Notes: generated by a model from the letters alone, not told the origin. Counted from the first letter of the stretch, positions 4,534-29,865 are shown. The stretch: DNA of 64,000 bases from a virus (IMGVR_UViG_3300050156_000143:192001-256000); one strand, 5' to 3'. Made by a program: numbers and translations.

Positions 4534-4974
4534 ATGCGACATTTTGAAATTCCGACATGGTTTGCACACATGAGTTCTGGCAACGTGGAACGATCCGCGA
4601 TCGATGCACTGTTTGCCGATCTGGAACGTGCAACCCGCACAGCAATCGATTCCCGCAAGTATCCGCCCACCAACATCATCAAAACGTTGGATGACGCCCG
4701 TGTCGTTGAAATGGCGGTGGCAGGTTTTGAAAAGGATGACTTGTCTGTTGTGACAGACCGAAAGCAACTGATTATCACTGGGAAACTTCCGAAACCATCG
4801 GATGTGGAATACATGACACGTGGCATCGCCCGTCGAAACTTTGAAACCACTGTGGAGCTACGTGATTATGAAGAAGTGCGCAACATCATCTTGAAAAATG
4901 GTATGCTACGCATTGAACTGGTGCTCAACGTGCCAGAACAAGCCAAACCAGTAACCCATAACATCGTTTCCTGA
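4534..4974 (+). CDS. small heat-shock protein Hsp20/IbpA family
   Basis: YPPTNII...VEMAVAGF...YMTRGIARRNF...LKNGMLRIEL; SD AGGAG 4522-4526. Confidence 0.92.
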   Translation: MRHFEIPTWFAHMSSGNVERSAIDALFADLERATRTAIDSRKYPPTNIIKTLDDARVVEMAVAGFEKDDLSVVTDRKQLIITGKLPKPSDVEYMTRGIARRNFETTVELRDYEEVRNIILKNGMLRIELVLNVPEQAKPVTHNIVS

Positions 4975-4988
4975 AAGGATTTCCCATC

Positions 4989-5285
4989 ATGGCTACTCAA
5001 AATGCCGTCAAGCCGAACAAACAACTGCAAGCACCCAAGTTTTGGAACGTGATTTTTCACGATGGTGTGAAGACGACTCATGAACATATCGTAAGTTGCC
5101 TAGAGGCATTTCTCCGGTATGAGTCTCATGCTGCCACTGATAAGGCCTATGAAGTTTCTGATGATGGTAATGCTGTGGTGGCCACATTGCCGTATGAGAT
5201 CGCAGAAGAAAAGGTGGCTGCTATCAACGGATGCTCTGACATGACGGGCAACGTGTTGAAGGTCACGATGGAAATGTCCACCTAA
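4989..5285 (+). CDS. clpS: ClpS-like adaptor protein (divergent)
   Basis: P-x-x-W-N-V-I-F-H-D...G-N-A-V-V...EIAEEKV aligns along E. coli ClpS. Confidence 0.8.
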   Translation: MATQNAVKPNKQLQAPKFWNVIFHDGVKTTHEHIVSCLEAFLRYESHAATDKAYEVSDDGNAVVATLPYEIAEEKVAAINGCSDMTGNVLKVTMEMST

Positions 5286-5941
5286 TCTATGAAGCAACAT
5301 TCGGCATAATAGACTGAGTGTTGCTTTGGATTACTAACCAACTCTACGCCACCACTCGTGGCGTTTTTCTTATGTGCGGTTCCACCGTATGCCCAAATTT
5401 TGACCTTACTGTGTTGATCTGATACTAGCACAGTGATGGGGGAAATTAGGGACAGGTTGCTGGGCACGGTGTCTAACAGTTCTTTGGCAGGTGGGGTGGA
5501 AGTGACTACCACGATAGATTCAACGTCACAGGCAGCGTTTAGTTCCTTGATGGTTTCATGTAAAAAAGCAACGTCTTCATACATGGCATCGATCTCAGTC
5601 GAATTTCCATACCATCCGTTCGCGCCAATGATAGCCACCTTGTCGGATATGGCATAATCATCGTGCAGATACACGATGTTGTCACGTGTTTCAGAAAATT
5701 GAGTGAAAACTTCTACTACTTGCGAGTTTGGTGTTCTAGAATTTTCCAAAGGGCCGTCGATGAAAAACACGCACTCATAATGTTCCCCAAGATGGTCTAA
5801 CACTTTCTTACACGTTTCCAAATCGTGGCTTATGTTTCCGGCCACCACGCACACATCACTTGTTGCTCGCAATTCCCAATCAAACGATTCATCGACTTGC
5901 AAATTTAAGTCGCTAATCAAATCAAATGTGTGCCCAGACAT
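5282..5941 (-). CDS. calcineurin-like metallophosphoesterase, degenerate motifs
   Basis: FDLISDLNL / VVAGNIS / FIDGPLE / IGANGWY / WAYGGTAH follow the family motif order; TAAATA upstream (5963-5968, minus). Confidence 0.7.
   Translation of the reverse strand: MSGHTFDLISDLNLQVDESFDWELRATSDVCVVAGNISHDLETCKKVLDHLGEHYECVFFIDGPLENSRTPNSQVVEVFTQFSETRDNIVYLHDDYAISDKVAIIGANGWYGNSTEIDAMYEDVAFLHETIKELNAACDVESIVVVTSTPPAKELLDTVPSNLSLISPITVLVSDQHSKVKIWAYGGTAHKKNATSGGVELVSNPKQHSVYYAECCFID
5346..5368 (+). terminator. intrinsic terminator after clpS
   Basis: ACGCCAC-cactc-GTGGCGT followed by TTTT. Confidence 0.6.
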
Positions 5942-14150: not shown

Positions 14151-14358
14151 CCGCATTGAAGTGGAATCGATGGCAGCTTTTTCTCAGTATAACTGTGGAT
14201 CGTATCCTGGTTTATGGAGTGGACGACTGGTAAAAACCACGATCAATGGCGTTCGATATTTAGTAACTATGCCAATATATTGCAAGGGAGTAAATGTCCC
14301 AGTGACCGTTACGTGTAACGATGGTGTCTATGTTGTTGTGAATAAGGAATCACTATGA
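14140..14358 (+). CDS. hypothetical protein
   Basis: 72-aa ORF with GGAGG SD, coupled to next gene. Confidence 0.6.
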   Translation: MECDRIEVESMAAFSQYNCGSYPGLWSGRLVKTTINGVRYLVTMPIYCKGVNVPVTVTCNDGVYVVVNKESL

Positions 14359-15368
14359 AAAGCAATTTGGATTATTTTAAGGGCAGCATCGCATTTGCCG
14401 TGCTCACCCTAATTTTGGTGGCGTCATACGGCGCATCTATTAGTTTGGCAGCAGCCGTGAGCTTCACGGTGTCTGCCATGATTTTGGCCATTTTGGAGAC
14501 CACAGTGTCTCTAGATAACGCCATTTTGAACGCCACGGTGTTGAAACACATGAGCGCATTTTGGCGAAAAATGTTCCTCACCGTGGGCATATTCATCGCG
14601 GTATTTGCTGTGCGAATGGTGTTGCCCATCATGATTGTCAAATTCACTGGCAATGTGACTTTCATGGATGCGATCACAATTCCATTCAATGATCCGGCGC
14701 GATATGCGCAAATCATGCACGATGCTCACATTTCTATTCTTGGGTTTGGTGCGACATTTTTGTTGATGGTAGTGGCGACTTATTTCTTCAACATTGACAA
14801 ATCCCACCACTGGATTCACCACGTTGAATCGAAGTTGACACAACTCCCAGTTACGCCAGTGGTGTTGATGGTAGTGGTGGTGATTGGGTATTTTGTCGAG
14901 TTGGACAAACTTGGTGCATATTTTATCAGTTCAGCAATTGGTTACGGTGTATACCAAACTATGCACCTTATCAAGGCATGGCTGGGGGGCAAAGACTTGT
15001 CCACCGCTGTTGCAAAAAATGGCCTAATCGGGTTCGCATACCTTGAACTGTTAGACGCTAGTTTCAGCCTTGACGGCGTGGTGGCAGCGTTTGCAATCAC
15101 CAATATGTTCATCATCATTGCAGCGGGCCTTGGAATTGGGGCTATGTTTGTGCGATCAATGACTGTGTATTTGGTGGACAAAGAAACGCTGGAACAGTAT
15201 GAATTCCTGGAGCATGCGGCATATTGGGCCATTGCGGCGTTGGTTGTGATCATGTATCTGGGTATTTTGCACATCGAAGTGGGCGAAATTGTTGCAGGGT
15301 TAACCTCCGCAGCAATTATCGCTGCTGGGGTGTGGTCATCTATTCGCAAAAACCGTATTTCAAACTGA
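14355..15368 (+). CDS. TerC-like integral membrane protein (DUF475)
   Basis: LETTVSLDNAILNA...YLELLDASFSLDGVVAAFA...GLGIGAMFVRSMT...LEHAAYWAI. Confidence 0.9.
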   Translation: MKSNLDYFKGSIAFAVLTLILVASYGASISLAAAVSFTVSAMILAILETTVSLDNAILNATVLKHMSAFWRKMFLTVGIFIAVFAVRMVLPIMIVKFTGNVTFMDAITIPFNDPARYAQIMHDAHISILGFGATFLLMVVATYFFNIDKSHHWIHHVESKLTQLPVTPVVLMVVVVIGYFVELDKLGAYFISSAIGYGVYQTMHLIKAWLGGKDLSTAVAKNGLIGFAYLELLDASFSLDGVVAAFAITNMFIIIAAGLGIGAMFVRSMTVYLVDKETLEQYEFLEHAAYWAIAALVVIMYLGILHIEVGEIVAGLTSAAIIAAGVWSSIRKNRISN

Positions 15369-15378
15369 AAGGAATATC

Positions 15379-15978
15379 ATGTTAAAAATCACAAAAGATC
15401 AAAAACTACCATTGGTGAAAGGTGGCGCTAAATTGACCAAAATTCGGTTGGAACTATCTTGGAGTCCACCGACTATCAATACGACCGGATACGCCTATGA
15501 TTTTGATATCAGCGCCTTATTGACCGACTCCTCAAAAACTGGGAATTGCGACATGGGCGTGAGCATTGGCAATCAATGGATATGTTACTGGGGACAACAA
15601 AATACCCCATACGCAAACCATATCAAGGGCGATAACCGCAATGGTGTTGGTGTTGGTGCTGATGAAATTGTGGAAATCGATTTCGCACAAATTCCGCAAA
15701 ATGCTGACCGAGTGCCATGTGTTATCACTATTGACAAAGCGATTGCTCAAAACCAATGCTTCGATCATTGTGGTGATGCGACCGCTGTGGTGTTTGATTC
15801 AGCGTCGAATACCCCAATTGCCACCATTGTGTTGAGCAAGTTGGACAAAGGTTCCACCAGCGCCTTGTTGGGGTGTTTCAAACGAGACAGCGGTGGCTGG
15901 ACATTTGAGAACGCATCGACTGGATTTGTGGATAAGGAATTGGTTGACTTTTTTATGTTGTTTGGATGTGAACTATGA
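15379..15978 (+). CDS. TerD/TerZ family protein
   Basis: LELSW...YDFDISA...GDNRNG...DEIVEIDF...GCFKRDSGGWTF. Confidence 0.88.
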   Translation: MLKITKDQKLPLVKGGAKLTKIRLELSWSPPTINTTGYAYDFDISALLTDSSKTGNCDMGVSIGNQWICYWGQQNTPYANHIKGDNRNGVGVGADEIVEIDFAQIPQNADRVPCVITIDKAIAQNQCFDHCGDATAVVFDSASNTPIATIVLSKLDKGSTSALLGCFKRDSGGWTFENASTGFVDKELVDFFMLFGCEL

Positions 15979-16532
15979 ACTTGTATCTAGACTGTGAATT
16001 CAACGAGTTCAAGGGTGAACTCATATCGATGGCGCTAGTGTCAAATTCTGGACATGAATGGTACGAAGTGTTGGAATGCAACCGTCCGAAACCTTGGGTC
16101 AAACAGCATGTCATTCCAGTGCTGAATAAGGATGCAGTCACGATTGACAAATTTCAACAAAGTTTGCGGAACTTTCTGGGTCAATTTTCTACCATTCATG
16201 TGGTCGCAGACTGGCCAGAAGATATTGCTCATTTTTGCAACGCCTTGATTACTGGCCCTGGTGAACGAATGAATACCCCGCCGTTAACTATGGAAGTCAA
16301 GCGGGTAGATTGTGCCAGCAAAATCCCTCATAATGCGCTAAGTGATGCTCGTGGCATCCGTGATGAGTTATGTAAGCCAACCGAATTGACCAAACAATAT
16401 GACACCGGAAACGGTTGGCCAGTCAGAGTTGTGGCCGATTTGTCGGGATACACCTTGCATTTTGCTGACCACACATCATCGACAAAAGAGCATAATGCAA
16501 CGATGGACGAGAGGGGGTTGCTGAAATTATGA
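15975..16532 (+). CDS. DEDD-family 3'-5' exonuclease
   Basis: LYLDCEF...ELISMALV...ADWPEDI...HNALSDA. Confidence 0.85.
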   Translation: MNLYLDCEFNEFKGELISMALVSNSGHEWYEVLECNRPKPWVKQHVIPVLNKDAVTIDKFQQSLRNFLGQFSTIHVVADWPEDIAHFCNALITGPGERMNTPPLTMEVKRVDCASKIPHNALSDARGIRDELCKPTELTKQYDTGNGWPVRVVADLSGYTLHFADHTSSTKEHNATMDERGLLKL

Positions 16533-16643: not shown

Positions 16644-16649
16644 TAAATA
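16644..16649 (+). promoter_or_regulatory. putative late promoter TAAATA, 4 nt before ATG 16654
   Basis: same motif and spacing at 8 starts in the window; resembles T4 late promoter TATAAATA. Confidence 0.7.
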
Positions 16650-16653
16650 CATC

Positions 16654-16839
16654 ATGAAAACTTCAGAAGTCACCCAACCCTCTCTCAAAATTTTGGCCGA
16701 AACCTTTGATCAAACTCAGTCTGGATTCTTGACGGAAGACCTGATCAATGTCACTCAAGTGGTGAAATGGTCTGCACCAATGTCTAGCGACGATTTGGAT
16801 TGCTTTTTGCAACAATGTGGGGTCAATCTTGAAGGTTGA
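16654..16839 (+). CDS. small acidic protein upstream of RelE-like gene (possible antitoxin or head-targeted peptide)
   Basis: 61 aa, MKTSEV N-terminus, overlaps the next ORF. Confidence 0.65.
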   Translation: MKTSEVTQPSLKILAETFDQTQSGFLTEDLINVTQVVKWSAPMSSDDLDCFLQQCGVNLEG

Positions 16840-17170
16840 ATTCCAAGTTTGTGACCTGTTTGTAAAAACGCTGAAAGCAAACCCGCAAGTTGTAAAAACG
16901 TTTATGCAATTCAAGGCGGCAAAAGCAACAAATCCTACCGCAGCATTTGGATCAAGTGATTACCCTTTCAGGCATTCTTTTCTGAAGGGGTATATTCACG
17001 CCAAATTGACATTCGATGTGTCTATCATATACAGCATTTCCGGCGGTGATTCAAAGGTGATAAAACTTTATGGGATTTTTAGCCACGATGATTCTGGAAC
17101 GGGTCAACCGCCTAATCTCAATCGTCAACAATCCCTTGGTAAAAAACTTGGAAATCAGCAGTTCACATGA
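16817..17170 (+). CDS. RelE/YafQ-like mRNA interferase
   Basis: DYPF.HSFLKGYIHAKLTFDVSIIYSI...KLYGIFSH resembles YafQ/RelE core; start GTG 16817 or TTG 16829. Confidence 0.65.
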   Translation: MGSILKVEFQVCDLFVKTLKANPQVVKTFMQFKAAKATNPTAAFGSSDYPFRHSFLKGYIHAKLTFDVSIIYSISGGDSKVIKLYGIFSHDDSGTGQPPNLNRQQSLGKKLGNQQFT

Positions 17171-17721
17171 TGCAATATGCAGCCCTACGCAATTTACGAA
17201 AAACCAATATGGTGAACGATGGCACTCGAACGCTGTCTGAATCGATTGTTGTGTGGGAAGTCGGCGTGGCTTTTGATGATTTTGTGAAAGCCACCAAGGA
17301 TGAACATTTCGTATTGATCGGTGGGTTGGCGTTGAGCTTTTACGTTAAACCGAGAACGACCACCGATGTTGATGTCTTGTTTTTATCGGACGGTGATATT
17401 CCAGCGTCATTGGATAAATTTAACCACCACAGTGGTGCGTTTGAGCATAAGATGACTGGTGTTGAGGTTGAAGTTCTATCTCCAACGGCAATCAATCTGC
17501 CTCAACACATTGCAGAACACATTTTTGCAACTGCGCGAAAAGTTGACGGAGTTAAAATTGCCTCACCTGCTGGCCTAGTGGTGTCAAAACTCGGGCGCTT
17601 CAATCGGCAAGATCAAGCAGACATTGAATCACTGTTGAAATATGAGAAGTTCAACATTGACGAATATCATGTGCCCCCATTGTGGGAAGAACGGTTTCGG
17701 TCAATTGAGGCAACATTATGA
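17167..17721 (+). CDS. nucleotidyltransferase, AbiEii/MenT-like (DUF6036-type)
   Basis: VLIGGLALSFYVKPRTTTDVDVLF...SKLGRFNRQDQADI. Confidence 0.8.
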   Translation: MMQYAALRNLRKTNMVNDGTRTLSESIVVWEVGVAFDDFVKATKDEHFVLIGGLALSFYVKPRTTTDVDVLFLSDGDIPASLDKFNHHSGAFEHKMTGVEVEVLSPTAINLPQHIAEHIFATARKVDGVKIASPAGLVVSKLGRFNRQDQADIESLLKYEKFNIDEYHVPPLWEERFRSIEATL

Positions 17722-18146
17722 GCAATTTGATGGAATCTGCCAGGTCATTGATGTTACTGGCTCACAAGGGCCAACGGGATCGGGGCGGAAAACCGTATCA
17801 CCTTCATCCCGAACATGTTGCGAATAGCTTATGCACTGATGATGAAGAATTGTTTTGTATCGCATTACTGCACGATGCCAAAGAAGATGGTGGGATCACT
17901 GATGAAATGATGTCAGCTCACGGTATGACTCCCCGTGTGGTGGCCGGGGTAAACGCATTGACTAAAATCCCCGGACAGTCGTTGGAAGAATATAAAACCA
18001 CTGTGATGAGTAATGCCGATGCGACCATAGTTAAACGCGCCGACTTGACGCACAACATGGATTTGACCAGACTGAAAAAAATTACCCAAAAAGATATTGA
18101 CAGAAATGTGCAGTATCAAAGTTTCTTAAACCAGCTCAACCAATAG
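17718..18146 (+). CDS. stand-alone HD-domain (p)ppGpp hydrolase-like (SAH/Mesh1 family)
   Basis: AHKGQRDRGGKPYHLHP...ALLHDAKED...VKRADLTHN. Confidence 0.88.
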   Translation: MSNLMESARSLMLLAHKGQRDRGGKPYHLHPEHVANSLCTDDEELFCIALLHDAKEDGGITDEMMSAHGMTPRVVAGVNALTKIPGQSLEEYKTTVMSNADATIVKRADLTHNMDLTRLKKITQKDIDRNVQYQSFLNQLNQ

Positions 18147-18156
18147 GAGAGCAATT

Positions 18157-18921
18157 GTGGACTATGCTGATCGCTTAAAATCACTCGATCTTAAATACAA
18201 AATTGGTATCGGGGTCGCCCTCATCGTGCTGGCACCAGCACTTATCCTGTTATTGAAGTCGTTGATTGCCACCATCGCCATTGGTGCAGTGTGTCTAGCA
18301 ACGATCAATTTTGCACCAGTTTTCTCGCAGAAACTGGCAAATTGGAAGTTGGCGGCAACCATTGATGAAGCGCGTAAACGTCCAATCATCGATGCGACCA
18401 GCGTGTTGGATAAAAAGCAACGCGAATTCGATGAATCGGTCATCAAGGTAAAAGCCGCAACGGGCGCACGTGATACTTTTATCGAAAAATGTCGTGAATT
18501 CTCCAAACAATACCCCCACCGGGCAGATGAGTTTCACAAACGTGCGGAACAATTTGCAATTCGGGTGGAGAAGCTGAAAGTTAAATTGGCTGAGTTCAAA
18601 GTCACCATTGACAATGGTCGCAAGGTGGTGCAGGAAATGAGCGCCTATTATGAAATGACCAAGGCACTGGATGCAGCGAATGCCGCTATCAATATGGGTG
18701 AAATGAACTCAAGCGACCAGATTCGTCTGGATACTGCTTGGAACAGTGTGTTGCAACAAATGAATAGCTCGTTTGCTGATTTGGAGATTGCGGAGGCTCT
18801 GGCAAAAGACCCGGAAGCACCACTTCCAGCTCAACCTACGTCACCAAAGATGCCGCAACTTGAACAGCCACAGGTGAACCCTGCTGCCGGACTGTTTGCC
18901 AAAATGAAACAATCTCGGTAA
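18157..18921 (+). CDS. membrane-anchored coiled-coil protein (PspA/IM30-like)
   Basis: two N-terminal TM helices then ~180-aa helical coiled coil; AGGAG SD. Confidence 0.6.
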   Translation: MDYADRLKSLDLKYKIGIGVALIVLAPALILLLKSLIATIAIGAVCLATINFAPVFSQKLANWKLAATIDEARKRPIIDATSVLDKKQREFDESVIKVKAATGARDTFIEKCREFSKQYPHRADEFHKRAEQFAIRVEKLKVKLAEFKVTIDNGRKVVQEMSAYYEMTKALDAANAAINMGEMNSSDQIRLDTAWNSVLQQMNSSFADLEIAEALAKDPEAPLPAQPTSPKMPQLEQPQVNPAAGLFAKMKQSR

Positions 18922-19719: not shown

Positions 19720-19855
19720 TTGTTATTTAGGATAGGAGCGAATATATGTTATATCGGGTAGTTTTCAGTGTGCTTATCATGGTGACAATTGGTGCCACCG
19801 TAGCATTCCAACAGGGTGTTGACCTCGTGGGTATCGTCAAAACTGTAATTTCACA

Positions 19856-28175: not shown

Positions 28176-28768
28176 AAAATAGTGGCGACATCGACATTGA
28201 TGTGGGAAATAGAGACCAATTACTTGCATTAATCGACCATAATCCAGCCAAAATTTGCACACAAGATGGGGACAGGCGGCATGGATCGGGAATATACGTT
28301 ACCGACATTCCATATGATTTTGTGAATGAAATTGCGACCATCGATTACCAAAGTGCGGAAACACGCGGTTACTTCAAGTTGGATATATTGAACGTGTCTC
28401 TATACTCAGAAATAACAAACACGGATGAGCTAGAATCGCTGATGGTTCCACCAAAATGGGAGTCACTGGGTTCACGAGAATTTGTCGAACAGTTGACACA
28501 TCTTGGTCAACACTATGATCTCTTACAAGAACTCCCCCCGATAACTTCCATAGTGGAACTGGCAATGGCTCTAGCCATCATTCGCCCCGCTAAACGCCAT
28601 CTTGCTGGAAAACCTTGGGAAATCGTGAAAAAAACGATTTGGCAAACTACTCCAGGTCAATATGCCTTCAAAAAGGCGCATGCGATAGCTTACGCTCATT
28701 TGGTAGTAGTCAATATGAATATGGCGTCAAGGAATTTTGCGAACCATTATGACCCCTTTTCTCTTTGA
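28172..28768 (+). CDS. minimal DNA polymerase III alpha (DnaE, family C) catalytic core
   Basis: GDIDIDV, HGSGIY, GYFKLDIL, LAIIRP, YAFKKAHAIAYA are DnaE signature motifs, in only ~198 aa. Confidence 0.85.
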   Translation: MKNSGDIDIDVGNRDQLLALIDHNPAKICTQDGDRRHGSGIYVTDIPYDFVNEIATIDYQSAETRGYFKLDILNVSLYSEITNTDELESLMVPPKWESLGSREFVEQLTHLGQHYDLLQELPPITSIVELAMALAIIRPAKRHLAGKPWEIVKKTIWQTTPGQYAFKKAHAIAYAHLVVVNMNMASRNFANHYDPFSL

Positions 28769-29104
28769 TTTTTTTACACCAAGAGCATGGATGCTGCATA
28801 TCGGCCCGTGAAGTATGGTCAGATTTTTGGTGACAAACGTTTTCAAAAATGGCTTGAATTCGTGCCATTCATGGCGTAAAAACAAGTGAATTGGCACAAT
28901 TCGGTTACTTCCCCACCACCACGCATCACCAAGTTCTAGAAACCGTTTCCTGGCGTCTGAGTTGGTAATGGCCGAATAATCATAAAGTGACGTGACGGAT
29001 GTATCCTGGTTTTGTACAATTCCCACATAATCAACACCAGCGTATGTGCAAATTGTGATAAAGGGGTAATGTTCAGCTAGTGTTGTTAAGTAGTTTTCTT
29101 GCAT
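28727..29104 (-). CDS. conserved hypothetical protein
   Basis: YPFIT...YVGIVQN...FLELGDAWWW.SNR.VPI.LFL; TAAATA 9 nt upstream. Confidence 0.75.
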   Translation of the reverse strand: MQENYLTTLAEHYPFITICTYAGVDYVGIVQNQDTSVTSLYDYSAITNSDARKRFLELGDAWWWGSNRIVPIHLFLRHEWHEFKPFLKTFVTKNLTILHGPICSIHALGVKKSKRKGVIMVRKIP

Positions 29105-29145
29105 TTGTGCGGTTATTTAGGTGGCATCTGTCGGTTAAATACCTT

Positions 29146-29865
29146 ATGTATGCAACAACCGTCTATATTTACAAACCTCGTCAGCAGGTGATTGTATATT
29201 CTGGTAACAGTCCTAGGAAATTTCAGCAAATGTACGCAAATAATCTCAAACTGCATCGCGGCGTTGATAACAAAATTCAATTCCGATTTCTGAACCAAGA
29301 GCAAAAACCTATTGATGTGTCAGATAGAGAAATCACTTGTCGAATATTGGATTCAACCAATTCTCAGGTCATATTGCAAAAAACGTTGTCAGGATTCTTG
29401 CCAGTCACGGGCATCATGGAGTTGGAGGTGTTGTCCTCCGATTTGGTTGATATAAAACCACAGAATTGCTTTTATTCACTTAGTTTCGCCGATGGCGACG
29501 GTGTGTACCCAGTATTTGTGGATACGTTGGGTGGATCAAAAGGTAAGATTGAGATAATGGATGACATATTGCCCACACATGTTGAATCCAACCTTGTTGG
29601 CATACCGTCTACCTCGGGTGCGATTTATTATTCCAGTGAATTTTCACCAGACAAATTTTCTACTACGATTCAAGTCGTTTTGACTGGATATTCTGGCTAC
29701 ATTGTCGTAGAAGGGTCAGTTAATTCGACCACATGGTACACAGTCACGCAGGTCTCGTTGGTTGCCAGTGATGGTGCTATAATTTCAATCGATGGGTTCC
29801 ACCCCAAAGTCAGAGTCAAATTTCAACCCACACAAGGCGAACCTACCCGCATTCTGTATCGATGA
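29146..29865 (+). CDS. hypothetical late (probably structural) protein
   Basis: TAAATA 29136-29141, 4 nt before ATG 29146; LHRGVDNKIQFRFLNQEQKPID. Confidence 0.7.
   Translation: MYATTVYIYKPRQQVIVYSGNSPRKFQQMYANNLKLHRGVDNKIQFRFLNQEQKPIDVSDREITCRILDSTNSQVILQKTLSGFLPVTGIMELEVLSSDLVDIKPQNCFYSLSFADGDGVYPVFVDTLGGSKGKIEIMDDILPTHVESNLVGIPSTSGAIYYSSEFSPDKFSTTIQVVLTGYSGYIVVEGSVNSTTWYTVTQVSLVASDGAIISIDGFHPKVRVKFQPTQGEPTRILYR

Follow-up and report, generated by a model that had tools for sequence, protein, structure and literature searches.

A late-type gene string in a jumbo phage that encodes RelE/YafQ-like, MenT1-like and Aph1-like proteins

Organization of the gene cluster and its TAAATA motif

We analyzed a cluster of five genes at positions 16644-18921 of a 64,000-nucleotide stretch of viral DNA (hereafter the window), which represents bases 192001-256000 of a 277,516-bp viral contig with direct terminal repeats (IMGVR_UViG_3300050156_000143). 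The cluster is found on the plus strand and opens with TAAATA (16644-16649), the core of T4-late-type promoters, followed by CATC and by the ATG (16654) of an acidic protein of 61 amino acids, pep61 (16654-16839, isoelectric point (pI) 4.05). It continues with a basic protein of 113 amino acids that has a RelE/YoeB/YafQ fold (16829-17170, pI 9.68; hereafter the RNase-like protein), a MenT1-like nucleotidyltransferase (NTase) of 184 amino acids (17167-17721), an HD-domain protein of 142 amino acids that resembles the small alarmone hydrolase Aph1 (17718-18146), and a basic protein of 254 amino acids, which starts with GTG (18157-18921). For the RNase-like gene, the TTG at 16829 was preferred over a GTG at 16817 as the start codon, based on an alignment of homologues. 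pep61 and the RNase-like gene overlap by 11 nucleotides, the RNase-like and NTase genes as well as the NTase and HD genes overlap by 4 nucleotides each (ATGA), and the last open reading frame (ORF) begins 10 nucleotides past the HD stop codon, with a GGAG in the gap. These coordinates confirm an earlier, sequence-only reading of this DNA, which had described coupled ORFs starting 4 nucleotides after a TAAATA motif. The peptide motifs quoted there all recur: pep61 contains MKTSEV, ILAE, and FLTE, the NTase RTLSES, and the HD protein NLMES. Inside the cluster, we found no terminator-like sites on the plus strand and no excess of sigma-70-like promoters. Near-identical DNA occurs in several leaf-litter metagenomes, and in a strain variant from another leaf-litter sample, about 96% identical, the segment 16556-19067 is contained in a single contig and is free of indels. 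When the cluster DNA was compared with 50,697 phage records, in near and distant modes, no match was obtained, and PADLOC reported weak AbiEii matches only.

The portal protein of the source phage shares 46-48% identity with those of Agrobacterium phage Atu_ph07 and Pseudomonas phage PA5oct, and among its genes is one for a gp21-type prohead protease (PF03420, E value 1.2e-29). In addition, a 277-amino acid ORF weakly resembles the T4 late sigma factor gp55 (genome 114831-115031, plus strand, E value 6.3e-5, 32% identity over residues 47-115). Judged by the portal kinship, the protease, and the weak gp55 match, the source phage is a jumbo phage of the T4 superfamily.

TAAATA is present 85 times in the genome, counting both strands, and in 25 cases an ATG-started ORF of at least 60 amino acids begins exactly 4 nucleotides downstream. 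Six further sites are followed by an ATG-started ORF after 5 nucleotides. For comparison, ten hexamers matched to TAAATA in composition yielded between 0 and 4 such cases among 77-273 sites, which places the TAAATA spacing well outside chance. The arrangement TAAATA-N4-ATG precedes the gene for the portal (phrog_213, 7e-96) and those for the virion structural proteins phrog_13484, phrog_12050, phrog_11591, and phrog_14154, which makes late expression from this motif plausible. No position upstream of TAAATA is conserved, and there is thus no -35 element. The 25 long ORFs opened by the motif also lack a Shine-Dalgarno sequence, and with both elements missing, these late genes look leaderless or nearly so. 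Most likely, a gp55-type TAAATA promoter drives late transcription of the cluster, on a leaderless or near-leaderless mRNA, a timing suggested by the company the motif keeps. The late-type promoter proposed by the sequence-only reading is hence supported as plausible by the motif statistics, the structural genes behind the motif, the gp21-type protease, and the weak gp55 match. The paper on PA5oct describes the promoters TATAATA and TTGAC and does not report a TAAATA late motif. TAAATA-N4-ATG also gives a simple criterion by which late and probably leaderless genes can be recognized from sequence in this group of uncultured phages. Within the window, it occurs at 16644, 29136, 41382, 42090, and 52549 on the plus strand and at 19729, 49804, and 54786 on the minus strand. 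Elsewhere in the genome, two such promoters stand back to back, 12 nucleotides apart (130163/130175), and a 483-amino acid ORF behind a TAAATA with a 5-nucleotide spacer (28335-29786, minus strand) matches Amidoligase_2 (PF12224, 1.2e-5).

An RNase-like protein and its acidic partner

Relatives of the RNase-like protein fall into 273 clusters at 50% identity. A profile built from 40 family sequences matches Helicobacter pylori HP0892 (E value 5e-5) and, weakly, YafQ (E value 0.1-0.2), and 8 of the 40 relatives match the YafQ_toxin family (PF15738). The AlphaFold (AF2) model of the phage protein has a predicted local distance difference test (pLDDT) score of 96.3. Its best Foldseek matches in the PDB are YoeB, YafQ, and RelE, with template modeling (TM) scores of 0.70-0.81 on the target; the top 19 PDB matches are all RelE-superfamily toxins, HP0892 included, with a probability of 1.00, followed later by Cami1, HigB2, and ParE2. 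Fold and superfamily of the protein, for which the label RelE-like RNase had been suggested, are thus borne out by the model, the family profile, and the PF15738 matches; the fold is the microbial RNase-like one, in which two N-terminal helices lie against an antiparallel sheet. Residues K32, D44, Y68, H86, and G90 are invariant in the family, and H57, D63, and Q100 are nearly so. The core motif of the phage family, ..D.P...G..HAHL..D..I.Y......L...G.H.., aligns with HP0892 and YafQ. In YafQ, the catalytic residues are H50, H63, D67, and H87, and based on hidden Markov model (HMM) alignments and the YafQ sequence we take D63 and H86 of the phage protein to correspond to D67 and H87. By its modeled fold and its family, the protein represents a putative ribosome-dependent mRNA endonuclease.

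A pep61 homologue is located directly upstream of the RNase-like gene in 43 of 50 viral loci from IMG/VR, and in 3 of them the two are fused; the fusion is also seen in many representative proteins. Pattern scans of IMG/VR with single proteins recovered no relatives, and as the family alignment (A1) proved too divergent for designing patterns, a closer subset (A3) was used. The 50 viral loci compare with three short contigs of metagenome-assembled genomes in a pattern-limited scan of 185,579 species genomes. pep61 and the RNase-like protein therefore form a conserved module that is nearly restricted to viral contigs and is laid out like a type II toxin-antitoxin (TA) pair. The two proteins carry complementary charge (pI 4.05 versus 9.68), and the pep61 family follows the consensus MK(I/L)NE(V/I)T..LFE..N.TGFLTEDL..WS.PMT.DEL. 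Searches of Pfam, PHROG, and NCBIfam gave no match for pep61, which we consider a candidate antitoxin or adaptor that may neutralize its neighbor, as gene order and charge would allow. An (A)TAAATA lies 5-7 nucleotides upstream of the pep61 homologue in about 17 of the 43 loci, so late-type control is apparently conserved for this gene pair. Among cultured phages, Ralstonia phage RsoM2USA provides the sole match to the RNase-like protein, at about 40% identity, and it carries the same pair as ORF115/ORF114. In RsoM2USA (4776-5492), the pair is followed by a 108-amino acid ORF and then by a protein that looks SIR2-like by eye.

We compared this module to known toxins of the same fold. It has in common with YafQ-DinJ, YoeB-YefM, and HP0892 the RelE-type fold, and as in type II TA pairs generally, a small acidic protein is encoded directly upstream, with overlapping stop and start. 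Unlike YafQ-DinJ and YoeB-YefM, the phage family is found almost only in viral contigs, mostly of jumbo phages with a T4-type protease where this was checked; it contains a conserved, family-specific C-terminal extension of about 25 amino acids (GTGQP.N...Q), and it does not keep the positions of YafQ H50 and H63. Its partner has no known DNA-binding or antitoxin domain, is sometimes present as an N-terminal fusion, and is preceded by a late-type promoter. T4, too, has a lytic-phage RNase of toxin-like fold, the endoribonuclease RegB, which has been described as RelE/YoeB-like and acts on mRNA; our searches, which did not include a direct comparison with RegB, showed no relation in sequence. 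regB is an early gene, RegB requires the ribosomal protein S1, and to our knowledge, it has no partner protein. The pep61-RNase module represents a sizeable family without a Pfam or PHROG model.

MenT1-like and Aph1-like proteins

The NTase matches PF19502 (DUF6036, 5.8e-11) and PF08843 (AbiEii, 5.2e-7), both above cutoff. We identified 65 homologues, several of them on contigs of 140-500 kb; in a tblastn search, no cultured phage was matched. The NTase family profile (A2) matches Mycobacterium tuberculosis MenT1 (8an4) with an E value of 1.9e-6, and an AF2 model of the phage protein (pLDDT 94.3) returned MenT1 (8an5/8an4) as top Foldseek matches. Across 36 homologues, T65, K141, and D152 do not vary, and D67 is almost invariant. 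They align with T39, K137, D152, and D41 of MenT1, respectively, which have been described as highly conserved (PMC11375011), and the MenT1-type motifs GG..x..PR.T.D.D, K..R, and D..D are retained. The label of an AbiEii/MenT-like NTase is thus upheld by domain, profile, and structure matches and by the catalytic residues. Given the MenT1 matches and a catalytic set that is invariant or nearly so, it is likely that the protein is an active enzyme of the MenT type, whose toxins extend the acceptor ends of tRNAs (PMC10435456).

The closest known systems are those of MenT1 (Rv0078A, of MenAT1), with which the phage NTase has profile, fold, and catalytic residues in common, and of AbiEii. In contrast to these, the phage protein carries about 44 additional N-terminal amino acids that are conserved and specific to phages, has neither an antitoxin nor a conserved neighbor, and resides in the genome of a lytic-type jumbo phage. 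No cognate antitoxin (MenA/AbiEi) is encoded beside it, the neighbors differ in every context examined, and a conserved small antitoxin upstream was rejected, since the upstream ORFs in other contigs are mutually unrelated. In one NTase-bearing contig, a TelA gene is located nearby.

The conserved residues of the two toxin-like families bear on a reading in which these proteins are non-enzymatic and disarm abortive-infection systems of the RelE or MenT type in the host, as decoys, by binding ribosomes, or as sponges for antitoxins. Phages do carry antitoxin mimics, such as T4 Dmd, and the missing H50/H63 equivalents would fit a protein that no longer cuts RNA. However, the RNase-like family varies little or not at all at H57, D63, Y68, and H86, and the NTase family retains all MenT1 catalytic residues, which are invariant or almost invariant there. 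This conservation argues for catalysis and leaves the decoy explanation very unlikely.

The HD protein matches phrog_990 (3.9e-43) and TIGR00691 (2e-11) and scores 26.6 bits against HD_4, just below the cutoff of 27.2. Its best solved relative is Bacteroides caccae Aph1 (7smg, E value 2.4e-20), with which the HP, HD, ED, and N motifs align. D21, N113, D115, R118, and Y133 correspond to Aph1 D24, N114, D116, R119, and Y134, and of the Aph1 signature (D24, R96, D116, R119, K133, Y134) four of six residues are kept, including the equivalents of D24 and R119. Aph1 is a (p)ppApp-specific hydrolase, and mutagenesis has shown that D24 and R119 set its specificity (PMC10083569). With Aph1 as best match and both specificity residues in place, the HD protein is probably a (p)ppApp rather than a ppGpp hydrolase. 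Of the function assigned in the sequence-only reading, a (p)ppGpp-hydrolase-like HD protein, the RelA/SpoT-type HD hydrolase stands, while the preference for ppGpp gives way to a predicted, Aph1-like preference for (p)ppApp. Like Aph1, the phage protein is a compact HD hydrolase of about 145 amino acids. In the phage, however, no (p)ppApp synthetase toxin is adjacent to the hydrolase: a RelA_SpoT synthetase domain is absent from the cluster, the neighboring NTase belonging to DUF6036/AbiEii. Two signature residues also differ from Aph1. Carriage of such enzymes by phages is common, with relatives of the HD protein in 331 phage records, and PaSpo, a small alarmone hydrolase of Salmonella phage SSU5, is reported to neutralize toxSAS toxicity (PMC9712102).

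The 254-amino acid protein contains a hydrophobic N-terminal stretch, as read by eye from its sequence, and matches phrog_27316 (1.9e-17), a family without an assigned function. A PspA/IM30 domain was not matched in Pfam or NCBIfam, and the weak matches obtained were to long coiled coils, for example Rad50; the former PspA-like label was consequently dropped. Few relatives of the protein were found, none of them named, and homologues are absent from the NTase loci (n = 19) and the RNase-like loci (n = 50). It is probably an unrelated passenger, which would be co-transcribed here and is unlinked elsewhere.

Linkage, packaging, and a reading of the gene string

We surveyed the genes within 5 kb of each viral locus for homologues of the other window proteins. 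In all 19 viral NTase loci, homologues of the HD protein, the RNase-like protein, pep61, the 254-amino acid protein, and a 109-amino acid protein are missing at this distance, and none of the 50 RNase-like loci has an NTase, HD, or 254-amino acid homologue. Genome-wide, we inspected five large genomes that carry the RNase module, of which four reach a completeness of 97% or more: none encodes a member of the NTase family, and one contains an HD relative, far from the RNase module. With no conserved co-occurrence at either scale, the three enzymes are independent modules that have been joined in this lineage. A toxin-immunity pair of NTase and HD protein was likewise rejected, given that the HD gene neighbors none of the 19 NTase loci.

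The same survey bears on a pairing of a different kind, in which the HD protein would remove 3'-pyrophosphates or alarmones made by toxSAS, and the NTase would rebuild or cap the CCA end, in a layout like that of CCA-adding enzymes. Such a tRNA 3'-end repair or counter-defence pair could account for the 4-nucleotide ATGA coupling of the two genes and for the NTase homologues that are found near a CCA-adding enzyme and an RNA ligase in two other phage contigs. However, no NTase locus has an HD neighbor, the closest solved relative of the NTase is the toxin MenT1 and not a repair enzyme, and proximity to RNA enzymes may be due to chance in gene-dense jumbo phages. We therefore attach only a slim chance to a repair pair.

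The sequence-only reading had gone further in proposing that all four proteins are packaged into the virion, trimmed after L-x-E sites by the gp21-type protease, and injected together as a takeover or counter-defence kit. The late-type promoter and the protease encoded in the genome would both suit such a model, as would the common theme of the three enzymes, all of which would target translation or alarmone machinery, and the injected proteins of T4 are themselves diverse and have in common only a capsid-targeting sequence (PMC3012670, PMC9026906). Yet the counts given above (0 of 19, 0 of 50, no NTase in five genomes, and one remote HD relative) speak against a co-evolved kit, a lack of conserved co-occurrence being what the sequence-only reading itself had named as a refutation. 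The processing sites do so as well: [IL]xE is common in this genome, with 0.0092 sites per residue, and among ORFs of 120 amino acids or more, 24% contain one in their first 30 residues. RTLSES in the NTase lies in a block, NDG.R.L.ES, common to 30 of 36 homologues, which makes its L-x-E a family feature, and NLMES of the HD protein aligns with TLLEK of bacterial Aph1, so that this site appears to be inherited from the fold. Neither site thus serves as evidence for processing. Moreover, packaged proteins would have to survive cleavage at three further sites in the NTase and one further in the HD protein. The RNase-like family shows neither excess nor depletion of sites (0.65 versus 0.63 expected), and the NTase family does not either. 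Packaging of the whole set is, in our view, highly improbable.

pep61 differs from the other proteins in this respect. Its family has 3.38 [IL]xE sites per 62 amino acids, compared with 1.02 expected from its own composition, a 3.3-fold excess at conserved positions. In addition, the family N-terminus MK(I/L)xE(V/I) resembles capsid-targeting sequences of T4, which read MKTYQEFIAE in IPII and IPIII and MKTFKEF in IPI in the T4 record. With both features at hand, packaging is conceivable for the pep61-RNase module. The peptide would target the pair to the prohead, the protease would cut at the (I/L)xE sites and thereby arm the RNase (or a fused zymogen) inside the capsid, and the product would enter the next host together with the phage DNA. 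The (A)TAAATA conserved 5-7 nucleotides ahead of this gene in some 17 further phages, a Peptidase_S77 in all five large carrier genomes, and a 73-amino acid ORF directly after the portal gene that begins MKLYEM all agree with such a route, and the fused forms would need cleavage for release. Against it, the first motif in the window copy is T-S-E (MKTSE) and not (I/L)-x-E, with ILAE following at residues 13-16, whereas the family has MK(I/L)xE at residues 1-5; an MRLHEI-type N-terminus is also found on a GH19 lysozyme-like protein; the motif excess comes from related sequences and is therefore not independent evidence; and the association with the protease may only mirror phylogeny. A virion study of RsoM2USA identified only ten abundant bands and does not list ORF114/115. 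On balance, we regard cargo status for pep61 and the RNase-like protein as unlikely.

As in the T4 internal proteins IPI, IPII, IPIII, and Alt, effectors that are targeted to the capsid, processed by the protease, and injected, a late-type promoter and a gp21-type protease are in place here, and the N-termini are similar, MK(T/I/L)x(x)E(F/V/I), with the spacing differing by one residue. In contrast to T4, the cargo would be a complex of a toxin with its partner, which is not known for T4. Should this prove true, a TA-like complex would be a new kind of phage cargo, able to cut host mRNA at the start of infection, and would extend the internal-protein principle of T4 to a protease-armed toxin. 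Several ORFs of the genome, the majority of which follow a TAAATA, carry an N-terminus of the form M(K/R)LxE(I/L/M/V), an excess of about 19-fold over a rough estimate (genome 37491, 123693(-), 129044(-), 130153(-), 143763, and 165035; window 42100). Its carriers include three paralogues starting with MRLHE(I/L)R(R/K)NPE.N or MKLREMRRNAE, the GH19 lysozyme-like protein, and the 73-amino acid ORF after the portal gene. This N-terminus could represent a targeting or processing signal.

We favor, at a probability of roughly 0.6, a reading of the cluster as a late-type accessory gene string that joins three independently mobile modules aimed at the host translation and alarmone machinery. The gp55-type TAAATA promoter would give rise to a late, leaderless or near-leaderless mRNA of the gene string. 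In the first module, the basic RelE/YafQ-fold protein would cut mRNA on the ribosome, and the acidic pep61 would bind it and hold it inactive in the manner of an antitoxin. In the second, the MenT1-like NTase, whose active site is intact, would add nucleotides to tRNA 3' ends, with no cognate antitoxin at hand. The Aph1-like HD enzyme of the third may destroy (p)ppApp, and possibly 3'-pyrophosphorylated tRNA, originating from toxSAS-type defences or from the toxins of competitors. The 254-amino acid protein, a membrane protein if its N-terminal stretch is read correctly, would travel along as an unrelated passenger.

Several observations weigh against this reading. The 4-nucleotide spacer between TAAATA and ATG is shorter than in T4 late promoters, TAAATA could also serve in translation initiation, and none of the RNA runs in which the cluster sequence was sought contains a match. 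The RNase-like protein taken alone matches no Pfam, NCBIfam, or PHROG model, and the equivalents of YafQ H50 and H63 are Y45 and K59, with position 59 varying across the family; RNase activity is therefore not assured. pep61 has no DNA-binding or antitoxin domain recognizable in Pfam, PHROG, or NCBIfam, and in the HD protein, T95 and Q132 replace R96 and K133 of Aph1. Finally, the close ATGA overlaps between three enzyme genes of one theme could still reflect cooperation in this lineage.

TA toxins are mostly viewed as a means by which bacteria defend themselves against phages. In the present case, a lytic-type jumbo phage encodes members of the RelE/YafQ and MenT types, together with an alarmone hydrolase, downstream of a late-type promoter. 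If active, these enzymes would represent phage tools to shut off or reshape host translation and to remove (p)ppApp-based defence signals. What remains most interesting is an undescribed RelE/YafQ-like family with a conserved, sometimes fused acidic partner and late-type control.

Immediately upstream of the cluster (14355-16532), the window encodes a TerC-like membrane protein (DUF475, 1.9e-81), a TerD-domain protein (7.8e-25), and an RNase H-like protein (phrog_2259). Among strain variants from other leaf-litter samples, one contains about 460 extra bases near 15975, between the TerD and RNase H-like genes, and others have 10 nucleotides inserted after 16512, where the RNase H-like ORF is close to its end.

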